From assembly GCA_041660305.1 (NCBI GenBank), contig JBAZWO010000001.1, forward strand, positions 290,268 through 354,267: a stretch of DNA of 64,000 nt. Direction: 5' to 3'. Within the stretch, counting starts at the first letter, position 1; each line of letters starts with the position of its first letter. This document shows, in pieces, positions 13,411 through 63,925 of the stretch. Made by a program: the position numbers and the translations under genes. The notes beneath the pieces are model-generated. The model was not told where the DNA came from and searched no databases. It saw only the letters and a program-made list of their open reading frames with translations. The stretch is from Patescibacteria group bacterium (GTDB taxonomy: Bacteria; Patescibacteriota; Patescibacteriia; UBA9570).

Positions 13411-13495
13411 CTACCTCTATCCCCAACCCTTTCCCCTAAACTTCCTACCTCGCCCTGTCCTTCGGACATCCCTCTCCTATTAGGAGAGGGAGAGG
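13411..13495. repeat. GC-rich modular palindromic element, locus R2
   Basis: It starts CTACCTCTATCCCCAACCCTTTCCCCTAAAC. It contains TGTCC-TTCG-GACA and the imperfect stem CCCTCTCCTA/TAGGAGAGGG (near-contiguous arms, at most ~2 unpaired central nt). It lies between the efp stop and the pyk start. Confidence 0.8.
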
Positions 13496-23205: not shown

Positions 23206-23279
23206 TCCCCCTCTCCTCAGAGGAGAGGGGGTTAGGGGGTGAGGTAGGATGTTTAGGGGAGGTAAAGAGGGAGAGGTAG
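23206..23279. repeat. GC-rich modular palindromic element, locus R8
   Basis: Contains CCCCCTCTCC-TCAGA-GGAGAGGGGG, then TTAGGGGGTGAGGTAG and GAGAGGTAG. It lies between the ligA start and the stop of the last pilin gene. Confidence 0.8.
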
Positions 23280-35593: not shown

Positions 35594-38500
35594 TTATTTT
35601 ATCGTTGGCAAACTTTTGCTTAAATCTTCCAGGCCAGGCGGTGGATTGGTAATTAAGCGGGTATCATAAATAATACGTTCAGAAGCTTTATTACCAGATT
35701 CTGTGCCGATATTTTTTCTACCAAAATTAAATTTACGCGCTAATACCAAACCTTTAATTTCCAGCTGCAACGTACTAGGGTCGGTAATAAACGTAGCAAT
35801 ACTATCATCCGTTGGATTATCTAACGCAATATATGCTCCAGCTAATTTTGTTACCGCTGGCTTAATAGTAATTTTACCAGTAGCAATCCAAGCTACGGAA
35901 GCAATATTATAAATATTGCTAATTGACGTATCATAATAAAACGAATTAGCCGCTATTTCTAAATCACCTTCTACTACAACAGTACCGGATCCTAACTTAT
36001 CTGGTGTATTAGCAAAAATTAAATTATTATTAATGATTAACTTATTGTTTATAGCATCTGTTTTACAATAATACACTTTACCGCCTAATGATATATGATT
36101 TATAGATAATGTATTTAAGGCATTCATTAATTCAATACAAGAATTATAAGCCGTGCCCTGTTGCTTGGCTTGTTCAATTAATTCACTTACATGTAAATCG
36201 CCAATACTGCCTCGATATACTTGTGTACTGTTATTAGTTGGTACATTAACATTTCCATACGCCGGATTTTTGGCATAGTCCGTAGCGTTTTTTTCAGCAA
36301 ACTCACTAGTAAACCCAGTGATGGTATCATTGGCTTGAATTAAATAAGTGGCATTATATTGTCCAACCGGAGGTGTAGTATTAGCCGTAAAGCCTTTTTT
36401 AGCATATACATCGCCATATAAAGTCTGTAACCAAGCTTTGGTAGCACTACTAACATCGGCATCAAAGCGCATCCAGCCTAAACCGCTACCAGTGATAAAA
36501 TTATTAGCACCATCTGTGCCATTGCCATTCCAACTAAATCCAGAAAACTGCCGAGCTGTGGTGTCATAGTATACTCCATAATTTCCGGTAACATTACCTG
36601 AACTATCTTTAACATCGCCACGCAATTTTACCCAACCCCAATCATTAACGTTATACAAATCTTTACCGTGATTACTAATACTTGTCCACCGTGCCCAACC
36701 ACTCACCACACCCGTACGTTCGTCCCAATAGGCTGTTTTGTCTACAAAATCAGGCTTACTAGTTAAATCTGGCTGAAATTCTAACCAACCTAATGTTTTA
36801 GCTTTATCAACAAACACGTCTGATACCGCATAATTCCCGACCCAAGCGAAACCTTTTATTAAACAATTCTCCGCGCAATCATCACCAATTTCTAATTGCA
36901 CACCGTATTTTGGCGTATCAGTTGCCACTGAATTTTCTGAAGCAAAACTAATAAACCCTACTCCACCACATTTACCTGGCAATAAAACACTTGGTACACA
37001 AGTTTCCTCCGCTGCATTGCCAATCCAGCCATAACCTTGGGCATTAGTATATAATGGAAATTGAATTACCTGCCAATACTGGTTGTTTAAATCGCTTTCA
37101 CCGTTTTCATCACTCCGCCAAAACGAAGCGGTAATTTTATCCTTGGCTGTTAATTGCGTTAACCAACGATTACGCGGAAACTCTTGTCCAGTACCTTTGG
37201 TAGTATTAGTAACAAACGCGAATGCTTTGTTGGTAGTATCTACCACTTTTGGTAAAGTAATTTCTTGATCATAGCGTTCGCCATCCGATTCAGTAGAGTT
37301 ATTTTCAACCACATTTTGCTGCGTAATTACAGTATTTTCCGGAAACGCAATCGCATAATAATTAATAGTGTTTACATATTCACCAGCTTCACTACGAGAA
37401 AACTCGGCTGTATTACCACCATCTGTGTTATTACAACCAACTGCTGCCGCGGCTATGCTATCTCCAGTAGTATTATAGGAACAATACAGCCATATCCTGT
37501 CTTGGCTGGCATTTAAACTATCAACGGTGGCAGAAACATCGCTAAAATTTGCTGGAATGGCTGTTTCGCCAGCTAGTATTTTTACATTCGAGGATTCAGA
37601 AAACGTTACTACTTCATAACGCGCCAAAGTGGTAGCTGTACTACCTCCACGAGCCACCTCTACAGTTTTATTATTTTTTAATTTACCAGTTACTAAACCA
37701 TTTTTTTCGGTAACTTGCGTATCGGCCGTACGAGAAGATACTAAAACCAGTGAGCGCGCGCTATCAACTATTGGAGTTAAATCGTTTGAATCGGCAAATG
37801 ATTCTTCATTATTAATAGTAATTTCACCGCGCTGCACCGAAAATTCATCTAGTTTACATTCCACTAACGTATATGATATTTGTGCCGTACCGGCCGTACC
37901 AATACGTTCAAACACTAATTCGGAAGCACTGGAAATATAACCACTCACCAAATGATCTGCAGCATTAACCACGTTACTATCTCCCGTACTGTTCACTAAC
38001 AAAAGCGCTTTGGTAATATTGGTTAACGACTTATCTAAAGTAACAGTCACACTGGTTTTATTTTCTCCGGTATCTGTGATGGTAGTTTCTCCTTGTTCTA
38101 CGCGGCACTGCGACCAATCAATTAATGGGACACTATTATTGGTAGTCTCTGCCGAACCGGTACCTTTTAGAGCAACACTTTGCAATTTTGGAGTAACCGC
38201 TGTATCACTAGTATTAAAAAATAATTTATATTGAATATATTGTTGTTTCATGTTTGCTAAAGCATAATAAGGCGCTCCATCAGCATTACTATCTAAATCA
38301 TTATAATAAGTACTGTCTCCATTGGGTCCAGTAAAGTTTTCTGTATCACAATTCACATCATCACACACTCGTAATTGCACGCCAAATTGCACTGCCCCCC
38401 TCATATACATATTTTCCACCTCCGTTGCAGACAATGCTCGCTTGAACACCGCCACTTCATCCATGTCGCCATAATATTGATTCTTGCCGGAAGTACCAAA

Positions 38501-40675: not shown

Positions 40676-40852
40676 ATTATAACATTTACGCTAACATGCA
40701 CATGATTTACATACAAGCGTGAATAGTCGACGGCGCTGAAATATTTATTTTTACCAATCCGCTGCACAAAAACTGGTTGTGCACTGGATTGGTGAGGAGG
40801 CGCAGGCAGGACACAAGATAAATTGTGCACGCGCCTCCCCTATCGTCTGCGA

Positions 40853-41602
40853 CTAGCCGTCCTGGCCATTGCAGTTTTGATCGATGTCGTCACCGTAAGG
40901 ATCGGGGGCGCCGGAGTAAATAGTTGGATCATTGTCATTGCAATCTGCTGCTGGCGACATAGGATCACACGACCCGCTGTAACCATCACCGTCACCATCG
41001 GGATCATCTTTGATCCCATTGCAGTTATTGTCCATACCATTACACATTTCTGGTGCCCCTGGATATATGTTCCGGTTATTGTCATTGCAGTCCTGGTTAT
41101 TTGTTACATAACCATATGGAGTGCTACAAGCTTGTGTAAAAACTTCAGGACTACCATAACTGTCATCATCAGCATCCTGGTAGTATGTGTTCTCCACATC
41201 TTCATCCACCTGACCATCACAATCATTATCCATAATGTCACAGCTCTCCGCAGCACCAGGATAAGAGTTAGTATTAGTATCGTCACAGTCATCTGTAGCA
41301 GTTACCCATCCTGGCAGCGGAGCACATGCCTCTCCTACTGCCACGGAAGTTCCGTATCCGTCGTTGTCCGCGTCCGGGTAATAAATGGTCTTCACACTAT
41401 CGTCAACCACGCCATCACAGTCATCATCCATCTCGTTGCAGCTTTCGGCCGCACCAGGATAGACCTGGTCATTCTGGTCATTGCAGTCGCCGTCAGCGAC
41501 CGAATAACCATCGACATCGACATCTTCAGTATCGGGACAGCCCTCTGCCCCAACGAACACAAACGCCGCCAAAAGAGGCAGCGCCTTCAGCCAGTTTCTC
41601 AT
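40853..41602 (-). CDS. Secreted Cys/Asp-rich repeat protein (MopE-type putative metal-binding motif, 4 repeats)
   Basis: The repeat is D.DGY....DC(N/D)D.....YPGA.E.C(N/D).(M/I)D(N/D)(D/N)C(D/N)G..D. The signal is MRNWLKALPLLAAFVFVGAEGC. The ATG at 41602 is preferred over the track's 41623 because AAGGAGG lies 5 nt upstream. Confidence 0.7.
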   Translation of the reverse strand: MRNWLKALPLLAAFVFVGAEGCPDTEDVDVDGYSVADGDCNDQNDQVYPGAAESCNEMDDDCDGVVDDSVKTIYYPDADNDGYGTSVAVGEACAPLPGWVTATDDCDDTNTNSYPGAAESCDIMDNDCDGQVDEDVENTYYQDADDDSYGSPEVFTQACSTPYGYVTNNQDCNDNNRNIYPGAPEMCNGMDNNCNGIKDDPDGDGDGYSGSCDPMSPAADCNDNDPTIYSGAPDPYGDDIDQNCNGQDG

Positions 41603-41914
41603 GGCTTCCTCCTTAAAAAACATTATCTCTATGTAAACAAGTATCCTGAAAAAATTATCAGGTTACTTGGAATTTTTAAAGAACAAAAAAATCCCCTGCT
41701 GTATATATAAAAGGATTAACTAAAATAATACTAGGGTATGTTGGCGACGGCGCTGCTAAAAAAACATCATTTTAGCTGTTGTAGTTAATAACCTAACGCC
41801 TGGGGATAAAATTTATACCGACGGCGCTAAAAATGTCTGGAACTATTCAATAAATCCACTAGGAACCTCTTCAAGAGATTCATACTGGATTTAGAGGCGG
41901 CGGGTTGAAATATA

Positions 41915-42667
41915 TTATTTCAAACACCGGCGCCTCCTTGTTATGGTGAGAAAAAGGGCGGTAAGAACCACCGCCAGACCCAGGGGCGGTCTGGCGGCCG
42001 ACTGCGTCGTAGAGCACGAGCAGCCGGGAACGGGGGGCGGCGAGACGAACTGATCGTCGTCGCCCGTGGTGTCGTCATCCCCCGCAGTGGCCGGGGGGGT
42101 GGGAGAAACGTCCGGAGTCGGCGAGACCTCCGGCGTGGGGGTGGGCGAGTCCCCCGTGGCATCGTCGTCGCCCGTCGAGTCGTCATCCCCGCCTTCAGGG
42201 GTCGGGGAGACGGGATCCGGAGTCGGCGTGGCCGTGGGCTCCGGGGTGGGGGGAGGCGAGTCCCCCGTGGCATCGTCATCGCCCGTGGCGTCATCGTCAC
42301 CCGCCACCGGTGTGGCTGGGGGGGTGGGAGAAACGTCCGGAGTCGGCGAGACCTCCGGCGTGGGGGTCGGCTCCGGAGTCGGACTGACCTCCGGGATGGG
42401 GGTGGAGATACAGTCCCCCGCGACCGACCCCTCGTCGGTCAGACCATCACAGTCGTTGTCTATACTGTCGCAAACTTCGGGAGCTCCCGGATATGTGTCC
42501 GGGTCGTCATCCCGACAGTCCCCAGTTGCACAACTAGGGTAGTCTGCCGAACACGACGACCCGTAGGCTCCCCATCCGTCGGCATCCTCATCGGTCCAAA
42601 CGGCCGACGCGGACGGGACGACGTATAGTGCTCCGAGAATCGTAAGGATCATGAACAAGTGCTTCAT
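41915..42667 (-). CDS. Secreted Pro/Thr-rich repeat protein with one MopE-type motif and a Cys-containing C-terminal sorting-signal-like tail
   Basis: 250 aa with signal MKHLFMILTILGALYVVPSASA and a tandem repeat EVSPTPDVSPTPPAT...GDDDxTGDDD. The C-terminus reads GCSCS, then a hydrophobic helix, then RRRRCLK. An AAGGAGGG SD is present. Confidence 0.65.
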   Translation of the reverse strand: MKHLFMILTILGALYVVPSASAVWTDEDADGWGAYGSSCSADYPSCATGDCRDDDPDTYPGAPEVCDSIDNDCDGLTDEGSVAGDCISTPIPEVSPTPEPTPTPEVSPTPDVSPTPPATPVAGDDDATGDDDATGDSPPPTPEPTATPTPDPVSPTPEGGDDDSTGDDDATGDSPTPTPEVSPTPDVSPTPPATAGDDDTTGDDDQFVSPPPVPGCSCSTTQSAARPPLGLAVVLTALFLTITRRRRCLK

Positions 42668-42759
42668 GGTCCCTCCTTATCTTTGCCAGCCCTCTTCACC
42701 GTATCCTGCACCATGCAAGAATTCAGATCAGAAAGCTGGACTTGTTGAAACAGAACATA

Positions 42760-51807: not shown

Positions 51808-52302
51808 ATGGCTGTTGGACATAATACAAAATATGGCAAGATTTTAGCTGAATGGCAAGTGCCAGAATATATTAAATATCAGCACTTTTTTGGCTGGTAT
51901 TTAGGCGCTGGCTTAATTGGCGGTTTTTTCTTTATTCACGCTTTAATTAATCGCAATTTTCTGTTTGTAATCATTATCGCTTTGATAGCTCTGATTTCTT
52001 ATTTGCATGAGCGTAATGAGCCAGCCTTAATTGAATTACTTATTACTGAAGATGGCCTAGTATTTGGTGAAAAATTTTATCCTTACCGAGAATTTACATC
52101 TTTTTGGATTGTTTATGAGCCACCTGACGTGAAAACACTTTACTTTACCAATAATAAAACCTTACGTTCAGAATTCCCAATTCACCTGGAAAATCAAAAT
52201 CCCATTACCATTCGTCAACTTTTGTTAAATTATTTACCAGAAGATATTGAAAAAGAAGAAGAGGCCATAGAAGAAAAACTTGGTCGCGCCTTCCGCATTT
52301 AG
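51808..52302 (+). CDS. Hypothetical membrane protein
   Basis: 164 aa with two TM helices followed by a soluble domain. No motif was recognised. Confidence 0.45.
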   Translation: MAVGHNTKYGKILAEWQVPEYIKYQHFFGWYLGAGLIGGFFFIHALINRNFLFVIIIALIALISYLHERNEPALIELLITEDGLVFGEKFYPYREFTSFWIVYEPPDVKTLYFTNNKTLRSEFPIHLENQNPITIRQLLLNYLPEDIEKEEEAIEEKLGRAFRI

Positions 52303-52546: not shown

Positions 52547-52954
52547 ATGGACATTACTGTACAACAACAATTAGGCAGAACTTTGGCGGCACAGCGTCAA
52601 CAAGATCGCCAAACTTGGTTAGATAATGAGTTAAACGAAGACGCTGCTACCACTAAACCGCCGGCCTGGTTAATAAAACAACAAACTACTCAACAACAGT
52701 TAGCGCAACGTTTAACGAATCATTTTCAACAATTACTGCAACAATTGCCTGTGGTAGCTAATACAAATAACTTAGCTGCTAAACAAACATTTTTACGTAC
52801 CATTACAACTGAACTAGCTAAAATATATTATTTACGTTTGCGCATGGTAGAACTAAACGATCAATTAACTCCTGCAACCAAACAAGCTCGCTTACAGCAA
52901 CTAGCGCAAGACTGCCAACAGCAAGCTCAAACTATTATTAATTTATTAGGCTAA
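52547..52954 (+). CDS. Hypothetical Gln-rich protein
   Basis: 135 aa with Q/L/A-rich helical composition and no motif. Confidence 0.4.
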   Translation: MDITVQQQLGRTLAAQRQQDRQTWLDNELNEDAATTKPPAWLIKQQTTQQQLAQRLTNHFQQLLQQLPVVANTNNLAAKQTFLRTITTELAKIYYLRLRMVELNDQLTPATKQARLQQLAQDCQQQAQTIINLLG

Positions 52955-52963
52955 CTTCTACTT

Positions 52964-54391
52964 ATGGAACAACCTAATAATCCACTAGCCAATTCTGAAC
53001 AAACCAATCCAATTGTAGACCATCTGGAACAAGACATGGCTAATTTATTAAATAAAGATGGCTTGAATATTCGCTTGCCAAAAGCAGCCATGTTAAGCGT
53101 GCTTAAAAAAGCTTTAGGCCAGGTTAAGTTAACGCCAGAAAATATTACTAAATTAGAAAATGCTCACGTGCAACTAGCTGTTATTAATAAAATAGCCTTA
53201 GCTGATTTAGCTAATCGAGTGGCTAATGGCATGGGCGAATCATTAGATGAAGCGCCACCAGCTGGCGTAACCGAAGCCGTGCAGGCTTTGCCAAATCAAT
53301 TTAATTCTTTTGGCAACATGCCTGATAATCTACCAACCATGGCTATGCCTGCTACTTCAAGACCGCCTACAAATTTAGCTCACCAAACTCAACCAAGGCC
53401 AAGTAATGATATGGCTATGCCCGGCGAAGGCGTTGGTGATGATGAACCAACTCCTAATAAACCGGCTGCCGGCCAACAAGCAACCACACAACCAACTCAA
53501 CCAGCTAACGCCCCGGCCAATTTCCCCGGCTTAAACGCTCCGTCTGCTCAACCGGTAATGCCTACCGCGCAACCTGGCGCTGATAGCAGCTTCCCTTATC
53601 AAGGCACGCCTGAACAGCAAAAACAAGCCGAACCGCCTTTTGCTCAAAATGCATTAGCTAATCAAGACGCACAGCCTACTCCTCCACCAACTGCTGGATC
53701 ACCCACTCCAGCTGGTGCCACTAATACTCCACCTCCTGGTACTCCGCCACCGGCTGCCGGTGCACCTGGCACGCCTAATAATCAACCGGCCGGCGCCACT
53801 TCTAATGCCGCTAATCCTGCAACACAACCACAGGCCCAAACCGGCGGCCAACCTACTGCTGGAACAACCCCTAATAATAACACAGCTACTCAAAAAAAAA
53901 CCAAGCAAGTTGGCCCAATAGGTAACCTATTCAATCGTATACATAGACGCGGAAAAATAAATGCAGTCAATACAAAAATTAAGGATACACAAAATAAATT
54001 AAAAGATGTATCATTTCAGTTTGCTACAGAATACTTTGTTATTGTTTGTTTTAAAGAATTACTAGATTTTTTAATGACACTATTAGATGCTACCGGCTTC
54101 ATGATTATTATTTGCACGGCTATTAGTGCCGCCTGTGGCTCTGTAATCGGCTTAATTATTTGGTGGCAAACTAAAACTTGGAAAAAAGAAGTATTTAATA
54201 ATAAAATAGCGCTCCAAGCTATAGTAGCTTTTCTTTTAGAGTTAATTCCTATTATACAATTACTACCATTAAATATTGCTATGGCTTACGCCTTAACTAT
54301 TCAAACCGAACGGCGCAAAAAACATCATGAAAATAAATTAGACAAACTACAAAAAGAAAAACATAAGTTAATCAATCAGAAAAAAATATGA
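52964..54391 (+). CDS. Hypothetical Pro/Gln/Ala/Thr-rich protein with C-terminal TM helices
   Basis: 475 aa. A central roughly 200-aa low-complexity region is followed by 2-3 TM helices. The stop overlaps the recG start (ATGA). Confidence 0.45.
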   Translation: MEQPNNPLANSEQTNPIVDHLEQDMANLLNKDGLNIRLPKAAMLSVLKKALGQVKLTPENITKLENAHVQLAVINKIALADLANRVANGMGESLDEAPPAGVTEAVQALPNQFNSFGNMPDNLPTMAMPATSRPPTNLAHQTQPRPSNDMAMPGEGVGDDEPTPNKPAAGQQATTQPTQPANAPANFPGLNAPSAQPVMPTAQPGADSSFPYQGTPEQQKQAEPPFAQNALANQDAQPTPPPTAGSPTPAGATNTPPPGTPPPAAGAPGTPNNQPAGATSNAANPATQPQAQTGGQPTAGTTPNNNTATQKKTKQVGPIGNLFNRIHRRGKINAVNTKIKDTQNKLKDVSFQFATEYFVIVCFKELLDFLMTLLDATGFMIIICTAISAACGSVIGLIIWWQTKTWKKEVFNNKIALQAIVAFLLELIPIIQLLPLNIAMAYALTIQTERRKKHHENKLDKLQKEKHKLINQKKI

Positions 54392-56502
54392 TGCTGACCG
54401 GCCTGCACGGCGTTGGCACGGCTATACAACAAAAACTGCGCCGGTTAGCTATTACTACTTTAACCGATTTGTTATATCACTTTCCGGCTCATTACGAGGA
54501 TTTTTCAAATATCACCGCTATTACTGCTTGCGCAACGGATCAAGCCGTTACCATATTAGGCACAATAAAAAAAATTAGCACACGGCGTAGCTGGAAACGG
54601 CGCCGGTTTACCATTACCGAAGCTACCATTACAGATGCTAGTGGTGACATGAGGGTAATTTGGTTTAATCAAGCATATATTGCCGAACAACTACCGGCCA
54701 ACACTTTGGTTTATTTATCCGGAAAAATAACCCTTTACCAAAAAAAATTAGTGCTTAATAACCCTGTTTATGAACTATACAAAACCGAAACGGTTCATAC
54801 GGCCAGAATTGTACCGCGTTACGCGTTAACTACCGGTTTAACCCATAAACAACTACGCTATTTTATAAAACAAGCCCTACAAATACAAACTACTAATTAC
54901 TCCATTATTAAAGACTGGCTACCAGCTAATATATTAGATCAATATCAATTACTGCCCATTACTCAAGCTCTGCAAGCCATTCATTTTCCAAATAGCTGGG
55001 CAGAATTAGAGCAAGCCAAATATCGTTTAGGGTTTGATGAATTATTATTAGTACTGTTATTTGTACAAGCTACGCGCGCTAGTTTAGCTAAAGAAACGGC
55101 TCCTAGTATCCCGTTTGCCAAAACGCCTACTAAAACATTAGTGGATCGGCTCCCTTTTCAGCTCACGAATGATCAACGCGTAGCTGCTTGGGATATTATT
55201 AAAGACTTACAGCACACTACGCCCATGAACCGCTTACTAGAAGGCGATGTGGGCTCTGGTAAAACCGTAGTGGCCGCGTTGGCTATGTACAACGTAGCCC
55301 TAGCTTGTTATCAAGCCGTGCTTATGGCGCCTACTGAATTATTAGCCGAACAGCATTATCACACGATTAAACAATTATTTAGCCATACTAATATTAACGT
55401 GGGCTTGTGGACGCGTAGTAAAAAGATTGCTGCCTCGTTTCCAAGCGTCCTACCTCACCCCCCAACCCCCTCTCCTCTGAGGAGAGGGGGAGAATTTCTC
55501 CCTTCTCCTTTGAGGAGAAGGGCTGGGGATGAGGTAGGTAGCGGCGAGATTATTATTGGCACCCAAGCTTTGATTCAAAAAAATGTTCATTTTCCAAAAT
55601 TGGCGTTGGTGGTGGTGGATGAACAACACCGTTTTGGTGTTACCCAACGACAACAGCTAAAACAAGTAGCGACGCCCCGCGGGGCGTCTCTACTGACCCC
55701 TCATTTATTATCCATGACCGCTACGCCGATTCCCCGATCACTCGCCTTAACTATTTACGGTGATTTAGATTTATCATTATTAGCCCAGCTCCCAAAAAAC
55801 CGTAAACCTATTATTACTAAATTGTTTTCCACTGAACAACGTTTAGTTTTACAAAAAATTATTACTGAACACTTAGCTAATCAAGCGCAAATTTATGTAG
55901 TAGTACCAAGAATTGAAGAAAAAGATGACGGCGCTCGTTCTGTACAGACTGAGTATAAACACTGGCAAAAATTATTTCCAAATTATCGAATAGCTTATTT
56001 ACACGGCCAATTGCCAACCGAAGAAAAACAAGCGGTTATGGAGCAATTCCGCGCTGGAAAAATTGCGGTGTTAATAACTACCACGGTAATTGAAGTAGGG
56101 GTAGACGTACCTAATGCTACCGTAATGATTATAGAAGGGGCTGAACACTTTGGTCTAGCGCAGCTACATCAATTACGCGGTCGCGTGGGACGCTCACACC
56201 AACAATCCTATTGCTATGTTTGTACTGACGTGGCGTATCCCATAAAACGTTTGCAATATTTTGTAAAAAATCATAATGGGTTTGCCTTAGCAGACTACGA
56301 TTTAAAACTGCGCGGCCCCGGCGCTGTCTACGGCGCCATCCAATCCGGCTACTTCAACCAATTTAAAATAGCTACCTTAAGTAACACCAAACAACTCCAA
56401 CAAGTTAAAGCCGCTGCCGCCACACTTTACCCAAACATTAAACGCTACCCCGCTTTACACGCCAAACTGCAACACATGATAAAGCGGGTGCATTTAGAGT
56501 GA
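54388..56502 (+). CDS. recG: ATP-dependent DNA helicase RecG (carrying two palindromic-element insertions)
   Basis: 704 aa with a wedge domain, motif I GDVGSGKT, DEQHRFGV, TATPIPRSLA and QLRGRVGR. The reading frame is intact across the repeat at 55450-55537. Confidence 0.9.
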   Translation: MMLTGLHGVGTAIQQKLRRLAITTLTDLLYHFPAHYEDFSNITAITACATDQAVTILGTIKKISTRRSWKRRRFTITEATITDASGDMRVIWFNQAYIAEQLPANTLVYLSGKITLYQKKLVLNNPVYELYKTETVHTARIVPRYALTTGLTHKQLRYFIKQALQIQTTNYSIIKDWLPANILDQYQLLPITQALQAIHFPNSWAELEQAKYRLGFDELLLVLLFVQATRASLAKETAPSIPFAKTPTKTLVDRLPFQLTNDQRVAAWDIIKDLQHTTPMNRLLEGDVGSGKTVVAALAMYNVALACYQAVLMAPTELLAEQHYHTIKQLFSHTNINVGLWTRSKKIAASFPSVLPHPPTPSPLRRGGEFLPSPLRRRAGDEVGSGEIIIGTQALIQKNVHFPKLALVVVDEQHRFGVTQRQQLKQVATPRGASLLTPHLLSMTATPIPRSLALTIYGDLDLSLLAQLPKNRKPIITKLFSTEQRLVLQKIITEHLANQAQIYVVVPRIEEKDDGARSVQTEYKHWQKLFPNYRIAYLHGQLPTEEKQAVMEQFRAGKIAVLITTTVIEVGVDVPNATVMIIEGAEHFGLAQLHQLRGRVGRSHQQSYCYVCTDVAYPIKRLQYFVKNHNGFALADYDLKLRGPGAVYGAIQSGYFNQFKIATLSNTKQLQQVKAAAATLYPNIKRYPALHAKLQHMIKRVHLE
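55450..55537. repeat. GC-rich modular palindromic element, locus R11, inside the recG ORF
   Basis: CTACCTCACCCCCC...GGGGATGAGGTAG with hairpins CCCCCTCTCC-TCTGA-GGAGAGGGGG and CCCTTCTCC-TTTGA-GGAGAAGGG. It is translated as LPHPPTPSPLRRGGEFLPSPLRRRAGDEVG. Confidence 0.85.
55666..55693. repeat. GTAGAGAC-family palindrome inside recG
   Basis: GTAGCGACGCCCC|GCGGGGCGTCTCTAC, with one stem mismatch. It encodes VATPRGASLL between helicase motifs II and III. Confidence 0.75.
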
Positions 56503-57876
56503 TCACGTACAATCATCCGCTGAATTAGCTGTATTATAATCAGAACAATATGGTTCTGTATAAAGTTTGTTTTCATCAGGTATGCCACGTGAAAAACCGC
56601 AACCTTGATCGGCATTTTTACAACCTAATTCTTCATATTTATCATATCCATTAGGACATTTATCCACCGTACTATTTGTTGTGCATGTTGCAAAAGTAGT
56701 ATCTCTATTAGCAGAATTTAAACAATAATAATTAGCCGACACTCTTTCAGGCATATCGCTCCTTTTATAAGCCGGATTTAATAGAACACATTTATTCATT
56801 TTATTTGTGGCACCAACATAATTATCGCCACATCGTTGTAAATAATTAAAATGCCACCATTCTCCGGAATCACGAACAAATTTTCCACCAGATAATTGCT
56901 CCATAATTTTTTTCAACATATCCTGATTAGCTTTTAAATCTTCTTTATCAGGATTACCACTTCCTCCCGGACCGCCATTATTATACATAGCCGCTCTATA
57001 GTCTTTAGATGAAAAACCAGCTGAAGGAGCACCTTCTAACCATAAATCCAGAGCTACTCCTGATTCATGTTTACTAGTGCATACAGCGCTGGCTGGATTG
57101 CATGTTCTACAATCAGTAGTACAACAACCAACGCCAGCCGTACAACCTTCGGCTTTTGCCTTAAGATAACAGTCGCGCAGCTTAACTTGACTTTCATGTG
57201 ACCGATAAGCACTACCAACACCAATTTTACAAGTAGGACACAACGCTGCCTGTCCATAACCTGCACCGTTACGCATAGCATCAGTAATTTCTTCTAACCC
57301 ATCAGCGACTGATTTACATGCTTGTAATCCATTACCAATTAATCCTGCCGTATTTGGTATAGTTACAATAGGAGTTGGTACTGGTGTATCACAATAAGCA
57401 TCTTCTGATTTTGGAACAATCTTTAACACCGCTAACTTCATGTTCACAAAATTAGGATTAATCAAATATAAGATACTGTAGGAAAATAAGGCTAAGACTA
57501 AACCAATCACAGCGGAAGTAATGAGTTCTTTGCCTTGAGTAATGCTTTGCTCATTACCAGCGGAAGTTAACCACATTACTCCACCGGCCATAATTAACAC
57601 CGTAGCAATAATGCCTACTAAGCCTAAAGCGTAACGATAAACCAAGTTAATATATTGGCCTAAATTAGTTATGGTAGTTTGGGTACCTAGTGGTTGTTCT
57701 AGGGTGTATGGTTCCACTAAACCACCAATGTATTCTTCATCAACGGATTGCTTTGGATCTGATCCATCTGACGCTAGCACTAAACTAGGCAACAAACAAA
57801 ACCAACATAGCACAATTAATAATAATTTAGTTTGTTTTAAAAATTTATAATAAAAATTACTTACTAATAACAGCAT
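56503..57876 (-). CDS. Fusion: T4SS-pilin-like two-TM N-module plus Cys-rich M15 (VanY-like) peptidoglycan peptidase
   Basis: 457 aa. The N-module (residues 67-153) is shared with the 58624-60057 gene. LAS/M15 motifs present are GSAYRSHESQ, SKHESGVALDL and EWWHFNY. There are more than 25 Cys. Confidence 0.7.
   Translation of the reverse strand: MLLLVSNFYYKFLKQTKLLLIVLCWFCLLPSLVLASDGSDPKQSVDEEYIGGLVEPYTLEQPLGTQTTITNLGQYINLVYRYALGLVGIIATVLIMAGGVMWLTSAGNEQSITQGKELITSAVIGLVLALFSYSILYLINPNFVNMKLAVLKIVPKSEDAYCDTPVPTPIVTIPNTAGLIGNGLQACKSVADGLEEITDAMRNGAGYGQAALCPTCKIGVGSAYRSHESQVKLRDCYLKAKAEGCTAGVGCCTTDCRTCNPASAVCTSKHESGVALDLWLEGAPSAGFSSKDYRAAMYNNGGPGGSGNPDKEDLKANQDMLKKIMEQLSGGKFVRDSGEWWHFNYLQRCGDNYVGATNKMNKCVLLNPAYKRSDMPERVSANYYCLNSANRDTTFATCTTNSTVDKCPNGYDKYEELGCKNADQGCGFSRGIPDENKLYTEPYCSDYNTANSADDCT
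57418..57678. repeat. 261-bp near-identical module, copy A
   Basis: It differs from 59644-59904 at 2 positions by eye (57421 C/T and 57493 T/C). Both differences are synonymous. Confidence 0.9.
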
Positions 57877-58579
57877 CTATGGTTTTAGTTAATTGCTCAA
57901 GAGTTAATGGTTCGCTATACATAGCATCATTTACAAACAACGTATGCCTATTAGTAACACCTAAGGCTTGGCCATTATAATAGGCGTAATTAATCATAGC
58001 TTGATAGCGTTTTTCGTTCACACATGTTTCTAAATCAACACTACTGGCTCCGGCACTAGATAATTTAGTATAATCTAATGCTGTATTCGCTTTAGCTACA
58101 GTAATAATATTTTGTGTACTATTCCAAAACTTATCTTGTTCATCTAAACAATGAATCGCTTGTGTTAAATTCGTAGCTGTATCCGTATAATCTTTCCATA
58201 CGAGCATTAATTGTGAATATTGCTTGATTAAATCATTTGCCCAAGTTAAGTATTGCTGCGTAGTAGCATCATTAATATCACCATAAATAATTAAAAATAC
58301 TTCTGCTTGTACATTGCCTAATTTTGGATCCAAGTCCGAAACAAATACTTTAGTTTTGCGATTGATTTGTTGTTGATTAGTAGGTACTGTGGTAATTAAT
58401 GGATCTGGTAATATAACCTTATTTTTGTTGGTAATTGTGTTTGTACTATTAATCTTATTGCCTAATAATAGAAAATCCCTATTTTTAATAGCTGGTAACA
58501 TAATAATTATCACAAAAAAAGTACACAAAATAATTCCAGCTAAAATTAAAAGAATATAAGGAATGATACGCTTTAACAT
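57857..58579 (-). CDS. Membrane-anchored DsbA-like thioredoxin-fold protein lacking the CxxC active site
   Basis: 240 aa. It has the DsbA-family pattern (AEVFLIIYGD..., QDKFW, GVTNRHTLFVND), but the CxxC position reads NDAT and the cis-Pro loop reads RHT. Confidence 0.45.
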   Translation of the reverse strand: MLKRIIPYILLILAGIILCTFFVIIIMLPAIKNRDFLLLGNKINSTNTITNKNKVILPDPLITTVPTNQQQINRKTKVFVSDLDPKLGNVQAEVFLIIYGDINDATTQQYLTWANDLIKQYSQLMLVWKDYTDTATNLTQAIHCLDEQDKFWNSTQNIITVAKANTALDYTKLSSAGASSVDLETCVNEKRYQAMINYAYYNGQALGVTNRHTLFVNDAMYSEPLTLEQLTKTIDAVISK

Positions 58580-58623
58580 ATAAGTACTATTATAGTATTA
58601 TTCTATATTAAGATCAAACTTTG

Positions 58624-60057
58624 CTACATGGCATCTTTACATTTAGGTTTACTAGTATACAAATTACTAACACCGCCATAATTCTTGACGCTGGAAAAAT
58701 CCCAAAATGGTATATCGTCTGCACTGGGAGTATCATACATACAAGGCCCTGTGTCTTTAAACATTAGAGTAAAATCAGCTACTGTGGGACACACAATATT
58801 AGAACCACCACAAATAGCGTAACTATAAACTGTATCTTTATCAGCGGTACCCATATCAGCCTCATCTGTCTCAGCTTCGCTAGTACAATATCCATTAATA
58901 GCCACTTCTATAGCACCCTCCGCCGTATTTACCGGTCTACATAGTTGATTATCCTGACAAATATCATCACGCATTTTCAAAAATTGATCGCCGCTTAATT
59001 TTGGATTTTCACTATGACAACGCTCCGGATAATCTGCTGGACAATAATAAGAGGCTACTCCAGCACCACAATTAATACTAGATTTCCAGATATTCCAACC
59101 ACAATGATAAGCTCCTAATATAGTTCTTGAATCAGTTGAATTTAATCCTTTACTAAAATCAGCAAATATTTTTACACCAGCACACACGCCTACTTCTGGA
59201 TTCGTAGCCATAAAATTACAAATACTTTGCCAGTCTGTTCCATTAGACTGGTTATAAGCTAAGCCTGCTTTATCGGCGCATACTGCAATAATTTGATTAT
59301 TGTCTGAAATATTTTGTTCTTTTCTGGAATTCCATAAATATCCAGGTAATGTACCCATCAAACCACAGGCATTGGATTTTGGATCGGGATTATGTGCATT
59401 AATACAATAACCACTTTCATGTTTAACAATAGCTTTCATCATAGTTAAACTAAGCCCTGAATTAAACGCCTTCACATATTTAGTAATCCACTTATTTAAG
59501 TCTGTACTACTATAACTAGTTTTCGCACCACTAGGTAATGGTATAGTACTACCTCCTGAACAAGTTTTTAAACCAGTTTTTTCAATTAACGGCTTATCAT
59601 TCACACAAGCATTATCTGGATTAGCTAATTCAGCTGGAACAGGAATTTTTAACACCGCTAACTTCATGTTCACAAAATTAGGATTAATCAAATATAAGAT
59701 ACTGTAGGAAAATAAGGCCAAGACTAAACCAATCACAGCGGAAGTAATGAGTTCTTTGCCTTGAGTAATGCTTTGCTCATTACCAGCGGAAGTTAACCAC
59801 ATTACTCCACCGGCCATAATTAACACCGTAGCAATAATGCCTACTAAGCCTAAAGCGTAACGATAAACCAAGTTAATATATTGGCCTAAATTAGTTATGG
59901 TAGTGATGGAACTAAGGGGTTGTTCTAGGGTATAGTTGATATCAGTAACATATTGATCCTCCGTTTGGTCAGAATCTGCCGCTTGTCCTACAAAACCAAA
60001 ACTAAGCCCAGCTAATATCACAAAAACTATTAAAAACTTACGCAACAAAAACTTCAT
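58624..60057 (-). CDS. Fusion: T4SS-pilin-like two-TM N-module plus Cys-rich lytic transglycosylase (SLT/VirB1-like)
   Basis: 477 aa. SLT motifs present are IVKHESGY (catalytic Glu-Ser) and ACGLMG. The N-module is identical in protein sequence to the paralogue. Confidence 0.7.
   Translation of the reverse strand: MKFLLRKFLIVFVILAGLSFGFVGQAADSDQTEDQYVTDINYTLEQPLSSITTITNLGQYINLVYRYALGLVGIIATVLIMAGGVMWLTSAGNEQSITQGKELITSAVIGLVLALFSYSILYLINPNFVNMKLAVLKIPVPAELANPDNACVNDKPLIEKTGLKTCSGGSTIPLPSGAKTSYSSTDLNKWITKYVKAFNSGLSLTMMKAIVKHESGYCINAHNPDPKSNACGLMGTLPGYLWNSRKEQNISDNNQIIAVCADKAGLAYNQSNGTDWQSICNFMATNPEVGVCAGVKIFADFSKGLNSTDSRTILGAYHCGWNIWKSSINCGAGVASYYCPADYPERCHSENPKLSGDQFLKMRDDICQDNQLCRPVNTAEGAIEVAINGYCTSEAETDEADMGTADKDTVYSYAICGGSNIVCPTVADFTLMFKDTGPCMYDTPSADDIPFWDFSSVKNYGGVSNLYTSKPKCKDAM
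59644..59904. repeat. 261-bp near-identical module, copy B
   Basis: See copy A. The offset is 2226 bp. Confidence 0.9.
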
Positions 60058-60064: not shown

Positions 60065-61348
60065 TTATTTAAGATTAATTTTCCTTAATTGCTTAGTAAC
60101 AGCTTCTTGATAGTAAAGTGTTTTTTCATTGGCATCCACCAGCACATTATTAATACCGTTCAAACTAGTGCCTTTAACATTATCGGCTGGTATAGCGATT
60201 TTTTCTGTAGTGCCAGCGGCTAAATTAATCCGATAAATTTCGTGCGGTACGGTATCTAGTTTTTCTGGAGCAATGGCTGCGCCAGTTGGTTGTTGGGTAG
60301 GCACGGCACAATACAAGGTTGTGCCGGAACTATTATAAGCACATTTATCCACTGTGGTATTTAAGCCTAGGGTTGTTTTACTTGTTCCCACGGTATCGCC
60401 CTCTACTTTAGCAACACCGAGCGTATAATTATAATTAGTGGCCGTGGAATAAGTGGCATACAGCATAGTATCACCGCTTGGTGACCATTTTGTTTGCAAA
60501 CCACGACCATTTACTACGAAGGCTTTATAGTTTTCACCTTTTAAACCAACTGGAATTACTTTCTGATTAATATTATCCACATATTCTTGAAACGTGCCTA
60601 TCATTTTACCAGATGGAGACCAGTCCACAATTACTTTATCGGCATTATCACCCAATGGCTCAATGCCTTGCACTTGGCTACCGTCTGGATTAGAAACTCC
60701 TAACCAACGATCATTGGTATTGGCCACCATATATTTAAAACCAATTTGCGTATCGTTAGCGGAAAAATCCACCTCTTGAATATCTTTATTTAACGTATAT
60801 TGTTTTTTATTGGTAAAATCATACATTAATTTGTTGCCATCTTCAAATTGTAGCACCGCTTTATTATTATCATTCGACCAAGCCACCTCATTTACCCCTT
60901 TAAACACCTGTTCACTAATAGGAATTACGTTGCCATTAGCATCTACTCGGTAAAATTTACCATCCGCCGCGTTATAAAACGATACTAGCCCGGTATTGTT
61001 CAGTGTTGGAGACTGTGTTTCACCATTATAAACCACCGCGGACAAAGTTTCTTTACCACGCGCTACCGCATCAATAATCGGTAAACCGCCGTTCACATTA
61101 TTAGTATTTATTAAAACTGGATTATTATCTAAGTTTATATCCGGTAATTGCCCGTTACTAACCACCGCCGTGTTATCATTGGTGGTACTGGTTTGAAAAA
61201 TCGGCTTAAAAAATATAAAATAAATCAACCAACCAATAAAAACCGCCCCAATTAATAATACACTAACTAATAAAATCCGTTGTTGTACATAACTTAATTG
61301 TTGATACCAGCGTCTTATTTTATCTAACTGCTGCCTTAACCAAAACAT
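60065..61348 (-). CDS. Membrane-anchored beta-propeller protein (TolB/PD40-like repeats)
   Basis: 427 aa with an N-terminal TM helix and repeated WSPSG/WSNDN blade motifs. Confidence 0.55.
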   Translation of the reverse strand: MFWLRQQLDKIRRWYQQLSYVQQRILLVSVLLIGAVFIGWLIYFIFFKPIFQTSTTNDNTAVVSNGQLPDINLDNNPVLINTNNVNGGLPIIDAVARGKETLSAVVYNGETQSPTLNNTGLVSFYNAADGKFYRVDANGNVIPISEQVFKGVNEVAWSNDNNKAVLQFEDGNKLMYDFTNKKQYTLNKDIQEVDFSANDTQIGFKYMVANTNDRWLGVSNPDGSQVQGIEPLGDNADKVIVDWSPSGKMIGTFQEYVDNINQKVIPVGLKGENYKAFVVNGRGLQTKWSPSGDTMLYATYSTATNYNYTLGVAKVEGDTVGTSKTTLGLNTTVDKCAYNSSGTTLYCAVPTQQPTGAAIAPEKLDTVPHEIYRINLAAGTTEKIAIPADNVKGTSLNGINNVLVDANEKTLYYQEAVTKQLRKINLK

Positions 61349-61354: not shown

Positions 61355-61960
61355 TTATTTATTATTTAACCATTTAAATGTATCCACTTGCCAGGTTTGA
61401 TTGGTTTTCTTTAACTGTAAGCGAGCCGTTTGAGAAAATTGTTTAGTAGCACCAGCTATAGTTTCTACTCTACGCGTGCTTACTTCTACTGTAGCCCCCG
61501 TAGCCGCTTCGTCATAATCCACTAACTCTATATTTACCGCCGTGGTAATAACAGTATAAGCACTATTACTATTAGCTGTATTAGTGGAATTATTAATATT
61601 ATTAGCCACTACGCTTTTCATGTTTTCCGTCATGAACGCTTGCAAACTAATAATATTTTCCTGGCCGGTAGTGGTGGAAAAAGAACCGTACCGCTCGGTA
61701 AAAAAGCGCGCCGTGTTATAAATGCTCGTTTTATTATCTAGCGGTACATTAGTAACTGTATTAGCTGTATTAGTAGTAGTTGTATTGCTATTGTTAACCG
61801 CATTATTCGTAACTGAATTATTAGCGTTAATTACTGCCGGGTTATTATTACTATTAGTATTAGTAGTTGGCTGGCGTTTAATTACCACTAACAACACAAT
61901 AATACCAATTAATAAAATTCCAGCTATTGTACTTAATATAATTAATGTTTTTTTGTTCAT
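61355..61960 (-). CDS. Membrane-anchored protein, Asn/Thr-rich linker plus small C-terminal domain (VirB8-like candidate)
   Basis: 201 aa with a TM helix, a low-complexity N/T stretch and a roughly 120-aa C-terminal domain. Size and topology fit NTF2-like VirB8 proteins. This is a weak call. Confidence 0.35.
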   Translation of the reverse strand: MNKKTLIILSTIAGILLIGIIVLLVVIKRQPTTNTNSNNNPAVINANNSVTNNAVNNSNTTTTNTANTVTNVPLDNKTSIYNTARFFTERYGSFSTTTGQENIISLQAFMTENMKSVVANNINNSTNTANSNSAYTVITTAVNIELVDYDEAATGATVEVSTRRVETIAGATKQFSQTARLQLKKTNQTWQVDTFKWLNNK

Positions 61961-61975
61961 ATTGATTGATTTATT

Positions 61976-62019
61976 TCTCCCCCTCTCCAGAAAGGAGAGG
62001 GGGCTGGGGGGTGAGGTCG
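61976..62019. repeat. GC-rich modular palindromic element, locus R12
   Basis: CCCCCTCTCC-AGAAA-GGAGAGGGGG then CTGGGGGGTGAGGTCG. It lies between the VirB4 stop and the next gene start. Confidence 0.8.
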
Positions 62020-62020: not shown

Positions 62021-63925
62021 TTAATCTGGTTGATTATAATTATTTGCAAACTCTTTTTTTGCCTCTTCAATTTCCAATAACTGCTTAGGATCGGAAGTAA
62101 TAATCTGATCCTCCGTATAAGAGGCGATAATTTTAATAGCCGCATGTTTTGGTCCAGCAAAAAATATCCCCTCACCAACATTACCTTCCAATAATAAATA
62201 TTTTTCGCCATTAGTTAGCAAAAAGGTTTTTTGCACATTATCAATTGAAGCCGGTGATTGTTTTAATAGTATTTGTAAAGCAGAATTAGTAACAATCGCC
62301 CGACCATATGGTGATAACAAGAAATCATTCACATCTTGCGTAATGGTAGTAACACCTAAATAATATTTTCGACAGCGTTTTACCAGCGCAAAAATAAATT
62401 TAGCCGAATCCTCATTCTGCATCAGCCACCAGGCTTCATCAATTACCAAGATTCTTCGTTTTAATTCCGACCGGACAATATTCCAAATAAAACTAACAAT
62501 AGTATAAATACCAATTGGCCGCAACTCATCTTCTAAATCGCGCACTGAAAATACCACTAACTGATTATTTAAATCAATGTTGGTAGAGCTAGAAAATAAA
62601 CCAGCAAAAGTACCCTCGGTGTATTTTTTTAAACGTAGTACTAAATCCTGGCTACCTTCAAAACCAGTTAAAATATCTTGAAATTCTCTTAAAATTGGTG
62701 CTTCAACTTTAGATAAATCGGCATCGGGCGTAATATCTTTTTTCGCGTAAGTTTCTATTAAGGCGCGGTCAATAATGGAATCTTCGGCTGGAGTAATGTT
62801 ACCCAACATAATACGCAGCAACCCCTTTAAAGTAATTACAGCTGAACGTAAAATATCAGCTGGCCGATCGGCTCCGCCAACTGGTTTTGGTAAATCAAAC
62901 GGATTTATTTTGGCTTCAGAATTAAGGGAAATGGGAATAAACGTACCACCAACTGCATCCGATAAATATTTATACTCGTTTTCCGGATCAATCACAATTA
63001 CCTGTGTGCCCATCATTAAACTGCGTAAAATTTCTAATTTAATAGCATAGCTTTTACCGGCGCCTGATGTAGCAAATACCACTGAATTAGCATTTTGTAA
63101 AGCAAACCGATCGAATAAAATTAAGCTGTTATTATGCCGATTAATACCATATAAAATACCATTATCACTACTTAGTTCCGCTGAAATAAATGGAAACGAC
63201 GAAGCACATGGCGATGAATTCATGTTAAAATACACCTGTAACTGATCATTGGCTAGTGGTAATGTGGAATCAAACCCCTGTTCCGCTTGATAATACACCC
63301 GTTTCGCTACTACTAATTTGGAACCAAATTCTTCATCTAAGCGCTCCATAATATCTTCTAACGATTTTTCGTTATCAGCATAAGCCGTTAAATAAAGCGC
63401 GTATTGAAAAAATTTCTCCGTACCCTGAGTTAAGCTATCCCGTAAGTTTTCAATGTCTTTTAAAGCCGTTTCTTTCATTGGATCGCGCGGCGCGCCTTTT
63501 TCCGCATCGGAAATAATTTCCGCTTCTAGCGCACCCACTTTCTTTTTTAATTGTTTTAAAATAACCGAGGGCTTGACCGGATAAAAATACATGGCAATAT
63601 CCAACGATAAATTAAGTGTAATCATGGGCGCAAACCAACCAACCGCAATATACCGTGGATAAGTAACTACAAACATGGTAGAAGCTAATTTACCACCCAA
63701 ATCTATCCAACGTGATTGCACTTTTAAAGCGGCCGGCGCAATAATATCTAAAATAGACCTTACTCCTTCGGCATAAACTTTGGCTGCTTCTAACAATTCC
63801 CTAGTTTCTTGAGCCTCGGCTAATTTACGCTGTCGTTCCAAGGTTAACTCGGCCTTGGTTTTTGGTGTAAACGGGTTAGGTGTAACCTTTTTTTCGGCAA
63901 TGGCTGTTTGTTTTAAATTAATCAT
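62021..63925 (-). CDS. VirB4/TraC-type type IV secretion ATPase
   Basis: 634 aa with Walker A FATSGAGKSYAIK and Walker B RILVIDEAWWLM, in a Gram-positive TrsE/PrgJ-like layout. Confidence 0.85.
   Translation of the reverse strand: MINLKQTAIAEKKVTPNPFTPKTKAELTLERQRKLAEAQETRELLEAAKVYAEGVRSILDIIAPAALKVQSRWIDLGGKLASTMFVVTYPRYIAVGWFAPMITLNLSLDIAMYFYPVKPSVILKQLKKKVGALEAEIISDAEKGAPRDPMKETALKDIENLRDSLTQGTEKFFQYALYLTAYADNEKSLEDIMERLDEEFGSKLVVAKRVYYQAEQGFDSTLPLANDQLQVYFNMNSSPCASSFPFISAELSSDNGILYGINRHNNSLILFDRFALQNANSVVFATSGAGKSYAIKLEILRSLMMGTQVIVIDPENEYKYLSDAVGGTFIPISLNSEAKINPFDLPKPVGGADRPADILRSAVITLKGLLRIMLGNITPAEDSIIDRALIETYAKKDITPDADLSKVEAPILREFQDILTGFEGSQDLVLRLKKYTEGTFAGLFSSSTNIDLNNQLVVFSVRDLEDELRPIGIYTIVSFIWNIVRSELKRRILVIDEAWWLMQNEDSAKFIFALVKRCRKYYLGVTTITQDVNDFLLSPYGRAIVTNSALQILLKQSPASIDNVQKTFLLTNGEKYLLLEGNVGEGIFFAGPKHAAIKIIASYTEDQIITSDPKQLLEIEEAKKEFANNYNQPD

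Follow-up and report, generated by a model that had tools for sequence, protein, structure and literature searches.

Among type IV secretion systems (T4SS), that of Patescibacteria was the first whose owner was shown to depend on it for growth (PMC10633639, PMC12857230). The cultivated relative Ca. Southlakia epibionticum (S. epibionticum) requires both the system and the pilin array for its epibiotic growth (PMC10633639). A pilus there is a speculation of reviewers. The essential cluster is annotated as encoding PrgI (SEML1_0010), VirB4 (SEML1_0008) and six separate pilins of the Pfam family PF18895 (SEML1_0014-0019) (PMC10633639, PMC12102498). Directly downstream of virB4 lies SEML1_0007, listed in the published supplement as essential and with a C-terminal Hedgehog/DD-peptidase fold of the LAS superfamily, and the same supplement gives SEML1_0006 as essential, its product combining two lysozyme-like domains with one of cysteine proteinase type (PMC10633639). 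The subject here is a pair of genes, A and B, in which a module of the same pilin family is fused to a predicted wall peptidase and to a predicted lytic transglycosylase, respectively. They are found in a stretch of 64,000 nucleotides (nt) from a Patescibacteria group bacterium (GCA_041660305.1, contig JBAZWO010000001.1, positions 290,268 to 354,267), which is called the window.

VirB1-like hydrolases are known from Gram-positive T4SS and include TraG of pIP501, PrgK of pCF10 and CwlT of ICEBs1 (PMC12857230, cited in PMC12102498). Such enzymes are needed for passage through the thick monoderm wall (PMC12857230), and most Patescibacteria genomes with VirB2 homologues appear to be without VirB1 (PMC12102498).

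Genes A and B resemble SEML1_0007 and SEML1_0006 in that they encode a peptidase of the LAS/M15 fold and a glycosidase of the lysozyme superfamily at the same position relative to virB4. The S. epibionticum proteins are, however, much larger (1,113 and 643 amino acids (aa)) and the pilins are separate genes; the supplement rows for the two proteins list no PF18895 domain, a comparison by annotation and not by sequence (PMC10633639). The pilins SEML1_0014-0019 are like the window module in Pfam family, in having a signal peptide followed by a two-helix hairpin, and in clustering with PrgI and a monoderm-type VirB4. Pilins of this type are stand-alone proteins of ~110-190 aa that end right past helix 2, whereas the window module bears an enzyme and tail of ~300 aa. 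The two window copies are also 100% identical in protein, unlike the paralogues of Patescibacteria VirB2 arrays, which are reported to average 25% identity and to reach 54% at most (PMC12102498). Like TraG, PrgK and CwlT, the products of A and B are predicted to be membrane-tethered and extracytoplasmic and to supply glycan- and peptide-cleaving activities from within a T4SS operon. The Gram-positive enzymes carry both activities on one polypeptide with a simple N-terminal transmembrane (TM) helix and a peptidase of CHAP, NlpC/P60 or LytM type. The window differs in having two polypeptides, an M15/LAS peptidase, pilin-hairpin anchors and a shared Cys-rich tail. The Patescibacteria T4SS is puzzling in that a monoderm system has VirB2-like pilins and in that essential genes for a peptidase and a lysozyme lie beside virB4, and these two features are here covalently joined.

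Two genes with one module

The proteins encoded by A and B have a common predicted build of signal peptide, pilin module, swappable catalytic domain and shared Cys-rich tail (coordinates in Table 1). Residues 67-153 of A are identical to residues 52-138 of B at all 87 positions. The 261 nt encoding them differ at two sites, codon 62 (TTA/TTG) and codon 86 (AAG/AAA), and both differences are synonymous. A repeat search returns one long direct repeat of 291 nt with 97% identity and a spacing of 2,226 nt. A further ~30 nt on the 5' side of the tract (encoding YTLEQPL) are ~80% identical between the genes. The edges of the tract are sharp in that identity is at background directly 3' of codon 87, and the signal peptides of A and B have diverged from each other. 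On re-checking, the coordinates, the sizes of the open reading frames (ORFs), the residue ranges and the number of differences reported in the initial annotation of this DNA were all correct, and the motifs that it quoted (SAYRSHESQ, HESGVALDL and EWWHFNY in A; KHESGY and ACGLMG in B) are present. The protein encoded by gene B is 100% identical to a public sequence (P0006) on a contig of 491,640 bp, which bears the NCBI name 'MAG: pilin', where MAG stands for metagenome-assembled genome.

Near-identity of this kind might be produced by assembly or polishing while the true copies are divergent, and short-read assemblies of the organism do fragment exactly at the repeat, which shows that the region is hard to assemble. 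This explanation is scarcely credible, because the pattern of fragmentation itself proves that identical sequence is present in two contexts. The virB4 side of the locus is also present in two other assemblies, as L005 (an ENA MEGAHIT k141 contig) and L006 (JGI 3300014208), and each matches the window with 100% identity over ~4.2 kb. L005 stops at window position 59764 and L006 at 59782, after 141 nt (equal to k) and 123 nt, respectively, of the perfect tract in copy B. The partial protein P0002, which comes from the MAG that also contains L006, starts at codon 22 of the module and continues through the M15 domain of A and the entire C-terminus. Its start is ~123 nt ahead of the first single nucleotide polymorphism (SNP) specific to A, where the break point of the contig is deduced from the partial protein alone. 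Contigs that end about one k-mer into the tract are the mark of a de Bruijn break at a true repeat with two exits. The order X-R-Y-R-Z of the direct repeats leaves a single linear path through all segments, so that the gene order is not in doubt, and the two copy-specific SNPs are kept. The collapse of an assembly, raised as a possible source of the identity when the repeat was noticed, is thus contradicted by a repeat that is real in three assemblies and inside which independent contigs break. The relative L001 has an identical gene order with modules that are just 71% identical in nucleotides.

Breaks in the 291-nt repeat have left partial 'hypothetical protein' fragments in GenBank (WCW27_06265 and WCW27_06460, corresponding to P0001/P0002). 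Since the repeat systematically breaks short-read assemblies, fusions of this kind are probably under-counted in MAG surveys.

Identity of the module

The Pfam family T4SS_pilin (PF18895) is matched by A with 32.9 bits, by B with 32.8 bits and by the module alone with 37.3 bits (cutoff 26.6), over positions 5-70 of the 71 in the profile. The family is also matched by 106 of 109 close single-module relatives. In NCBIfam the module has a sub-threshold match to a "pilin-like conjugal transfer protein" of mycoplasma integrative conjugative elements. It is colinear with six tandem stand-alone T4SS pilins of Saccharibacteria (L027), with near-invariant Gly positions, and those pilins end just past helix 2.

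Two TM helices separated by a short loop had been proposed, and this arrangement is recovered in both ways in which it was examined. The AlphaFold2 model of A contains a helical hairpin (helices 72-104 and 109-139) with a predicted local distance difference test score (pLDDT) of 62-79. Hydropathy gives, in A and B alike, an N-terminal signal-like hydrophobic segment followed by two spans, which in A are found at 76-107 and 117-144.

Comparison of orthologues by segment shows 53-71% identity in the module, 29-47% in the catalytic domains and 11-35% in the tails. The module is thus the best-conserved segment of both proteins, which is the reverse of what is expected for a generic anchor. With the PF18895 match above cutoff, this speaks against a module that belongs to no pilin family and behaves as a mere signal-anchor. 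An exhaustive search of 1.84 billion representative proteins gave 34,354 matches to the module at E<=1e-3 and 4,414 at E<=1e-10. A word-indexed homologue search with the module alone as query gave one partial protein only.

Among the 155 closest module-bearing representatives, 34 have 2-11 tandem modules per polypeptide with a period of ~70-95 aa (P0101, P0102, P0109, P0050, P0025 and others). These 'poly-pilins' have no room for internal signal peptides and would be polytopic; read-through from wrong genetic-code calls is possible.

Catalytic domains and Cys-rich tails

The initial annotation assigned an M15/VanY-like peptidase to A, and three kinds of evidence agree with it. In the alignment of the A family R225, Q230, H270-x6-D277 and E339-W-W-H342 are invariant, which is the LAS/M15 signature. 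The family profile matches VanX (1r44) in the PDB at E=3.5e-7 and VanY at 3e-4, with several VanY structures. The top two hits of the model of A in Foldseek are VanY (5hnm) and VanX (1r44).

The lytic transglycosylase assigned to B holds as well. The protein scores 25.8 bits against the Pfam SLT family (PF01464, cutoff 21.3), and the catalytic E214-S215 and the ACGLM motif are invariant in the alignment of the B family. The profile of this family matches only lytic transglycosylases of Slt70 type in the PDB, with a best E of 0.003.

The two unrelated catalytic domains are followed by homologous tails of ~100 residues, an addition to the initial annotation. When the tails of M15-type and SLT-type proteins are compared with hhalign, the probability is 97.3% and E=2.7e-11 over 91 columns. 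The tails have no Pfam match, and the ~90-aa tail is an undescribed domain that is possibly a wall- or host-binding module. There are 22 Cys in A, 20 of them past the module, and 18 in B, all past the module. That nearly all Cys are found past the module fits an extracytoplasmic, disulfide-bonded location.

Distribution of the fusions

The loci L001-L004 share a frame with the window, in which virB4 is followed by a gene for ~200 aa, a variable fusion (pilin-X), a gene for ~430 aa, a thioredoxin-like gene and pilin-M15, and then by a convergent recG. X takes the form of SLT in the window and L001 and of an unknown Cys-rich domain in L002 and L004; L003 has no X. Pilin-M15 fusions occur in at least 14 species-level loci from species-representative genomes, many of them labelled Ca. 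Kerfeldbacteria, Falkowbacteria or Patescibacteria, and most of these loci have a second fusion of pilin and Cys-rich sequence 2-3 kb upstream. In one of the loci (L010) the pilin-M15 gene is split in two overlapping ORFs (3794-4183 and 4024-5205) and is a frameshift or a pseudogene. Seven loci (L010, L012, L014, L017, L021, L022 and L023) are titled 'uncultured Gammaproteobacteria bacterium' in TPA_asm MAGs, and are probably mislabelled.

The 155 closest representatives include 120 single-module proteins, and 106 of these 120 have an extension of more than 100 aa. The median extension is 194 aa with 14 Cys, and the Cys count is even in 85%, which likewise fits an extracytoplasmic location. 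A Pfam survey of 109 single-module proteins finds M15/VanY, SLT/SLT_2/SLT_3, 3D, glucosaminidase and GDSL in a minority of the extensions, and the remainder are without a match.

The fusion of a pilin-like anchor to two wall-degrading enzymes had been called unusual. It is recurrent in this clade of the candidate phyla radiation (CPR) and to that extent not unique; it is undescribed in the literature searched, which leaves out most subscription journals and in which no description of a pilin-hydrolase fusion was found. The fusion is therefore not a singleton but a sizeable family, with an architecture that is already in the databases. A family that is common in one large environmental CPR clade, with a modular build and recurrent homogenisation, leads to predictions that can be tested on assembly, on which wall is cut and on the evolution of the system.

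Homogenisation of the module

Concerted evolution of tandem virB2 or pilin paralogues, and of other surface-protein modules, by gene conversion is a general phenomenon. The window resembles it in having a short tract between nearby direct repeats, sharp edges and identity at synonymous sites. In pathogens, virB2 arrays diversify for antigenic variation (PMC12102498), whereas conversion in the window homogenises a module on otherwise unrelated enzymes.

The modules of all loci with at least two module genes were aligned and identity was calculated at third codon positions. Within loci it is 0.96 in the window, 0.74 in L011, 0.66 in L002 and 0.53-0.57 in L007, L022 and L004; in 516 between-genome pairs the median is 0.34 and the maximum 0.58. 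Within a locus, exact identity extends over at most 185 nt in the window and 68 nt in L002, where the conversion tract is internal and ~165 nt long, and the maximum between genomes is 27 nt. Homogenisation of the module is thus recurrent, through events of different ages and lengths of which the window has the freshest, and it is not universal, with none in L001 and L015.

One of the genes might instead be the product of a recent duplication or of shuffled domains, which would give the same identity without conversion between old genes. In favour of this, the sharp edge of the tract lies roughly at the domain boundary on the 3' side, and the second pilin fusion varies among genomes between SLT, an unknown Cys-rich domain and absence. 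This origin is nevertheless very unlikely. L001 has the arrangement of pilin-SLT, thioredoxin-like gene and pilin-M15 with divergent modules, so that both fusions predate the split of L001 from the lineage of the window and the near-identity in the window must be secondary. The signal peptides and Cys-rich tails of A and B have diverged, and L002 and L011 have partial tracts that differ in age, in keeping with repeated conversion. The proposal that the module is kept alike by gene conversion is accordingly borne out, because the paralogues are older than the speciation and yet the window pair is 99% identical including synonymous sites. The window module has 68-70% identity to M15-type and 64-71% to SLT-type orthologues, values that favour neither copy as the donor.

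Function of the fusion proteins

A and B are probably dedicated wall hydrolases of a chromosomal, monoderm-type (MPF-FATA-like) T4SS, tethered and targeted by the pilin module, in a bacterium that is probably of the Kerfeldbacteria/Falkowbacteria group. The window joins a pilin with a peptidase and a glycosidase that are separate in S. epibionticum, and A and B are mainly for this reason read as the T4SS's own hydrolases. Joining of this kind is a "Rosetta-stone" fusion and speaks for a common site of action of the pilin and the wall hydrolases. The link to the T4SS, which was part of the initial annotation, is supported by synteny with virB4 that is conserved across related loci.

In the proposed mechanism the PF18895 hairpin, with an enzyme fused C-terminally, would replace a plain N-terminal anchor. 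After Sec export and cleavage of the signal peptide the hairpin would insert with both ends outside the cell, and the enzyme and Cys-rich tail would then be on the outer face of the membrane. The module might bring both enzymes to the pilin platform of the T4SS, or co-assemble them there, and the wall would be opened at that place, with the SLT lytic transglycosylase of B cutting glycan strands and the M15/LAS zinc peptidase of A cutting peptide stems. By analogy with VirB1-like enzymes, the hydrolases most likely clear the producer's own wall for the apparatus. A single module serving a single interaction, together with direct repeats 2.2 kb apart, may allow gene conversion to overwrite one copy repeatedly, and the window represents a very recent event spanning the whole module. 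Homogenisation might in that case carry a selective advantage.

Several observations weigh against this interpretation. The resemblance to VirB2/TrbC-type pilins suggested initially stands for PF18895 but not for the classical TrbC/VirB2 family (PF04956, cutoff 27.9), in which A scores 17.3 bits and the module alone 14.8 bits. Nor does the module profile match any solved VirB2 or TraA chain among the PDB sequences. For these two reasons the module is classified as PF18895 and VirB2-like, not as PF04956, with a putative structural kinship to solved conjugative pilins. The AlphaFold2 model of A has an overall pLDDT of only 54, which is moderate, and the hairpin and the M15 core alone were used; the model of B, from an alignment of three sequences, has a pLDDT of 35 and was discarded as unusable. 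With A as a single sequence, Pfam Peptidase_M15 and VanY stay below cutoff (22.4 against 27 and 14.2 against 25 bits). The third SLT motif is degenerate in window B, AYHCG where relatives have AAYNGG. No stand-alone pilin is seen in the loci of this clade, and if the module polymerises every subunit would bear a domain of ~300 residues unless processed. In L001, L004 and L015 the modules of one genome do not clearly resemble each other more than orthologues do, and homogenisation could be a neutral consequence of closeness and likeness between the copies. In the literature a pilus in this group figures only as a possibility, and the activity of enzymes A and B is predicted from sequence.

The modules might instead polymerise into a filament of VirB2 type that displays the M15 and SLT enzymes and digests the wall of the host bacterium, a target that the initial annotation had considered. 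Such a filament is rather unlikely, and so is the idea that the modules are identical because selection fits both subunits to one helical lattice. In solved conjugative pili the termini of VirB2 and TraA are on the outer surface of the filament, and the hairpin topology predicted here would likewise put both termini outside the cell. The module is under stronger constraint than the enzymes, and proteins with tandem modules imply that hairpins can pack side by side in parallel. In all syntenic loci a membrane-anchored thioredoxin-like gene is translationally coupled to pilin-M15, and its CxxC-less product might be a chaperone or a self-protection factor. The essential T4SS and pilin array of S. 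epibionticum, with the pilus speculated there, point in the same direction. However, there is no direct evidence of any pilus in the group, a globular load of ~300 residues per subunit may be sterically incompatible with a VirB2 lattice, and no processing site or tip-specific feature has been identified. The Gram-positive VirB1-like enzymes that act on the producer's own wall are the simpler analogy. It is also doubtful, though conceivable, that the VirB2-like modules co-polymerise into a T4SS filament or a membrane-proximal conduit with enzyme-bearing subunits, by which an ultrasmall epibiont bores through the peptidoglycan of its host. If this were true, it would be through gene conversion that subunits armed with different enzymes continue to fit one lattice. 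Co-polymerised armed subunits would also explain the apparent lack of a separate VirB1 in most VirB2-bearing Patescibacteria genomes (PMC12102498), and an armed filament would provide the essential T4SS of the phylum with a concrete function.

At the other extreme, the module may be nothing but a generic membrane anchor and A and B housekeeping enzymes of wall remodelling, for example a VanY-like DD-carboxypeptidase and a turnover transglycosylase, which lie near the T4SS by chance. The closest solved relatives of the M15 domain, VanX and VanY, are enzymes that trim wall precursors, and the cluster is chromosomal, among recG, clpB and a tRNA gene, with no relaxase or coupling protein found nearby. 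This is quite improbable given that the module exceeds the PF18895 cutoff and aligns with bona fide pilins of T4SS clusters. A mere anchor is expected to be the least conserved segment and not the best conserved one, and the position downstream of virB4 is kept across many genomes. The pair also parallels the peptidase and lysozyme genes that the S. epibionticum supplement gives as essential in its T4SS cluster. Dedicated hydrolases of the T4SS, carried by a pilin module, remain the preferred interpretation of A and B.

Genomic context and other observations

The minus strand of the window carries a string of six genes, virB4, the 201-aa gene, the 427-aa gene, pilin-SLT, the thioredoxin-like gene and pilin-M15, with gaps of 60, 6, 7, 44 and -20 nt. 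Fusions B and A are co-directional with virB4 and lie 2 and 4 kb downstream of it. VirB4 scores 346 bits against NCBIfam conju_CD1110 (cutoff 325) and 98.4 bits against Pfam P-loop_TraG.

Table 1. Position of the features discussed, in window coordinates.
Feature	Position	Strand	Description
Gene A	56503..57876	(-)	457 aa: signal peptide, VirB2-like pilin module, Pro-rich linker, M15/LAS zinc peptidase (predicted), Cys-rich tail
Cys-rich tail of A	56506..56826	(-)	aa 351-457; homologous to B-type tails
M15/LAS catalytic domain of A	56827..57384	(-)	aa 165-350; from family alignment, Foldseek and PDB profile search
Module copy A	57418..57708	(-)	87-codon near-identical tract 57418-57678 and upstream YTLEQPL region 57679-57708
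Thioredoxin-fold (DsbA-like) protein	57857..58579	(-)	240 aa; membrane-anchored; between the two fusions
Gene B	58624..60057	(-)	477 aa: signal peptide, pilin module as in A, linker, SLT lytic transglycosylase (predicted), Cys-rich tail
Cys-rich tail of B	58627-59022	(-)	homologous to M15-type tails
SLT catalytic domain of B	59023..59502	(-)	aa ~186-345; from Pfam, family alignment and PDB profile search
Module copy B	59644..59934	(-)	87-codon tract 59644-59904
427-aa protein	60065..61348	(-)	one N-terminal TM helix; faint beta-propeller-like matches only; same operon
201-aa protein	61355..61960	(-)	one N-terminal TM helix, Asn-rich linker; immediately downstream of virB4
VirB4-like T4SS ATPase	62021..63925	(-)	monoderm, CD1110, MPF-FATA-like type
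REP/MITE-like element sites	55452-55494, 61975-62017, 23207-23231, 13470-13492, 14199-14221, 15732-15754		related copies near 50904 and 51046

Syntenic genes for ~197-206 aa correspond to the 201-aa gene in all related loci, and a VirB8-like role of its product is possible. The 427-aa gene has syntenic counterparts for ~426-431 aa in L001-L005. The thioredoxin-like protein scores 39.6 bits against Pfam Thioredoxin_4. The 3' end of its gene overlaps the start of gene A by 20 nt, with a similar overlap (~20 nt) in L001 and L003, and its position is kept in L001-L004. It is a likely conserved partner of pilin-M15. The protein was considered as a DsbA oxidase for the Cys-rich domains. This is unlikely because CxxC is absent from the window protein and its four orthologues (5/5 genomes), in which two other Cys are conserved, and the protein appears to be a redox-inactive partner of pilin-M15.

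L005, which is identical in the overlap, extends beyond the end of the window and encodes upstream a TraC-like protein, PrgI/VirB3 and proteins of 592, 978 and 3,793 aa. PrgI scores 36.4 bits (cutoff 27). The TraC-like protein is among the precomputed PF26593 matches and matches TraC_F_IV weakly (17.0 bits against 28.1). The 978-aa protein has multiple hydrophobic spans and is a polytopic VirB6-like candidate. No relaxase or VirD4-type coupling protein was found among the ORFs scanned at 35.6-64 kb of the window (~10 small ORFs there unscanned), among four scanned genes from the next ~6 kb past its end, or among the precomputed matches for the rest. The cluster is chromosomal and is flanked by recG, clpB, tRNA-Arg and other housekeeping genes. 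The system fits the published chromosomal, MPF-FATA-related and relaxase-less T4SS of Patescibacteria (PMC12102498).

Two giant proteins of surface type flank the system and are candidate adhesins. The 3,793-aa protein (L005 1-4043) is encoded directly upstream of the VirB6-like, PrgI and VirB4 genes, and a 1,663-aa protein with Laminin_G_3 (concanavalin-like lectin) domains is encoded at window 35594-40585(-).

On the other side of recG, at 51808-52302(+) and 52547-54391(+), there is a gene set that is syntenic in L002-L004. It encodes proteins of 164 aa, ~145 aa and ~460 aa, the last having an N-terminal half of low complexity, rich in Pro, Ala and Gln, and TM helices at the C-terminus. The proteins of this set are without a family match, and in relatives a type IV (N_methyl) pilin gene is found among the set.

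A GC-rich palindromic element with the core CCCCCTCTCCTCTGAGGAGAGGGGG, similar to repetitive extragenic palindromes (REP) or miniature inverted-repeat transposable elements (MITE), is present at no fewer than six sites, against a chance expectation of none (Table 1). One copy is in frame within the coding sequence of recG (…PSPLRRGGEFLPSPLRRRAGDEVG…) and another is located between virB4 and the next gene. The N-terminal sequence of the relative P0007 (…SHEEKGLGDEVG…) resembles what would result if a similar element were read through.

The window also contains a GC-rich island at 40823-42700, where the GC content rises to 66-69% at 41.9-42.5 kb, compared with 38.8% in the window overall. The island appears to stem from horizontal transfer, or else may be chimeric. 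Its ORFs at 40853-41623(-) and 41915-42667(-) code for secreted proteins whose Cys/Asp motifs for metal binding are of MopE type (PF11617, 136 bits in the first). The second protein has Pro/Thr/Asp-rich tandem repeats and a sorting-like C-terminal tail of PGCSCS, a hydrophobic stretch and RRRR.

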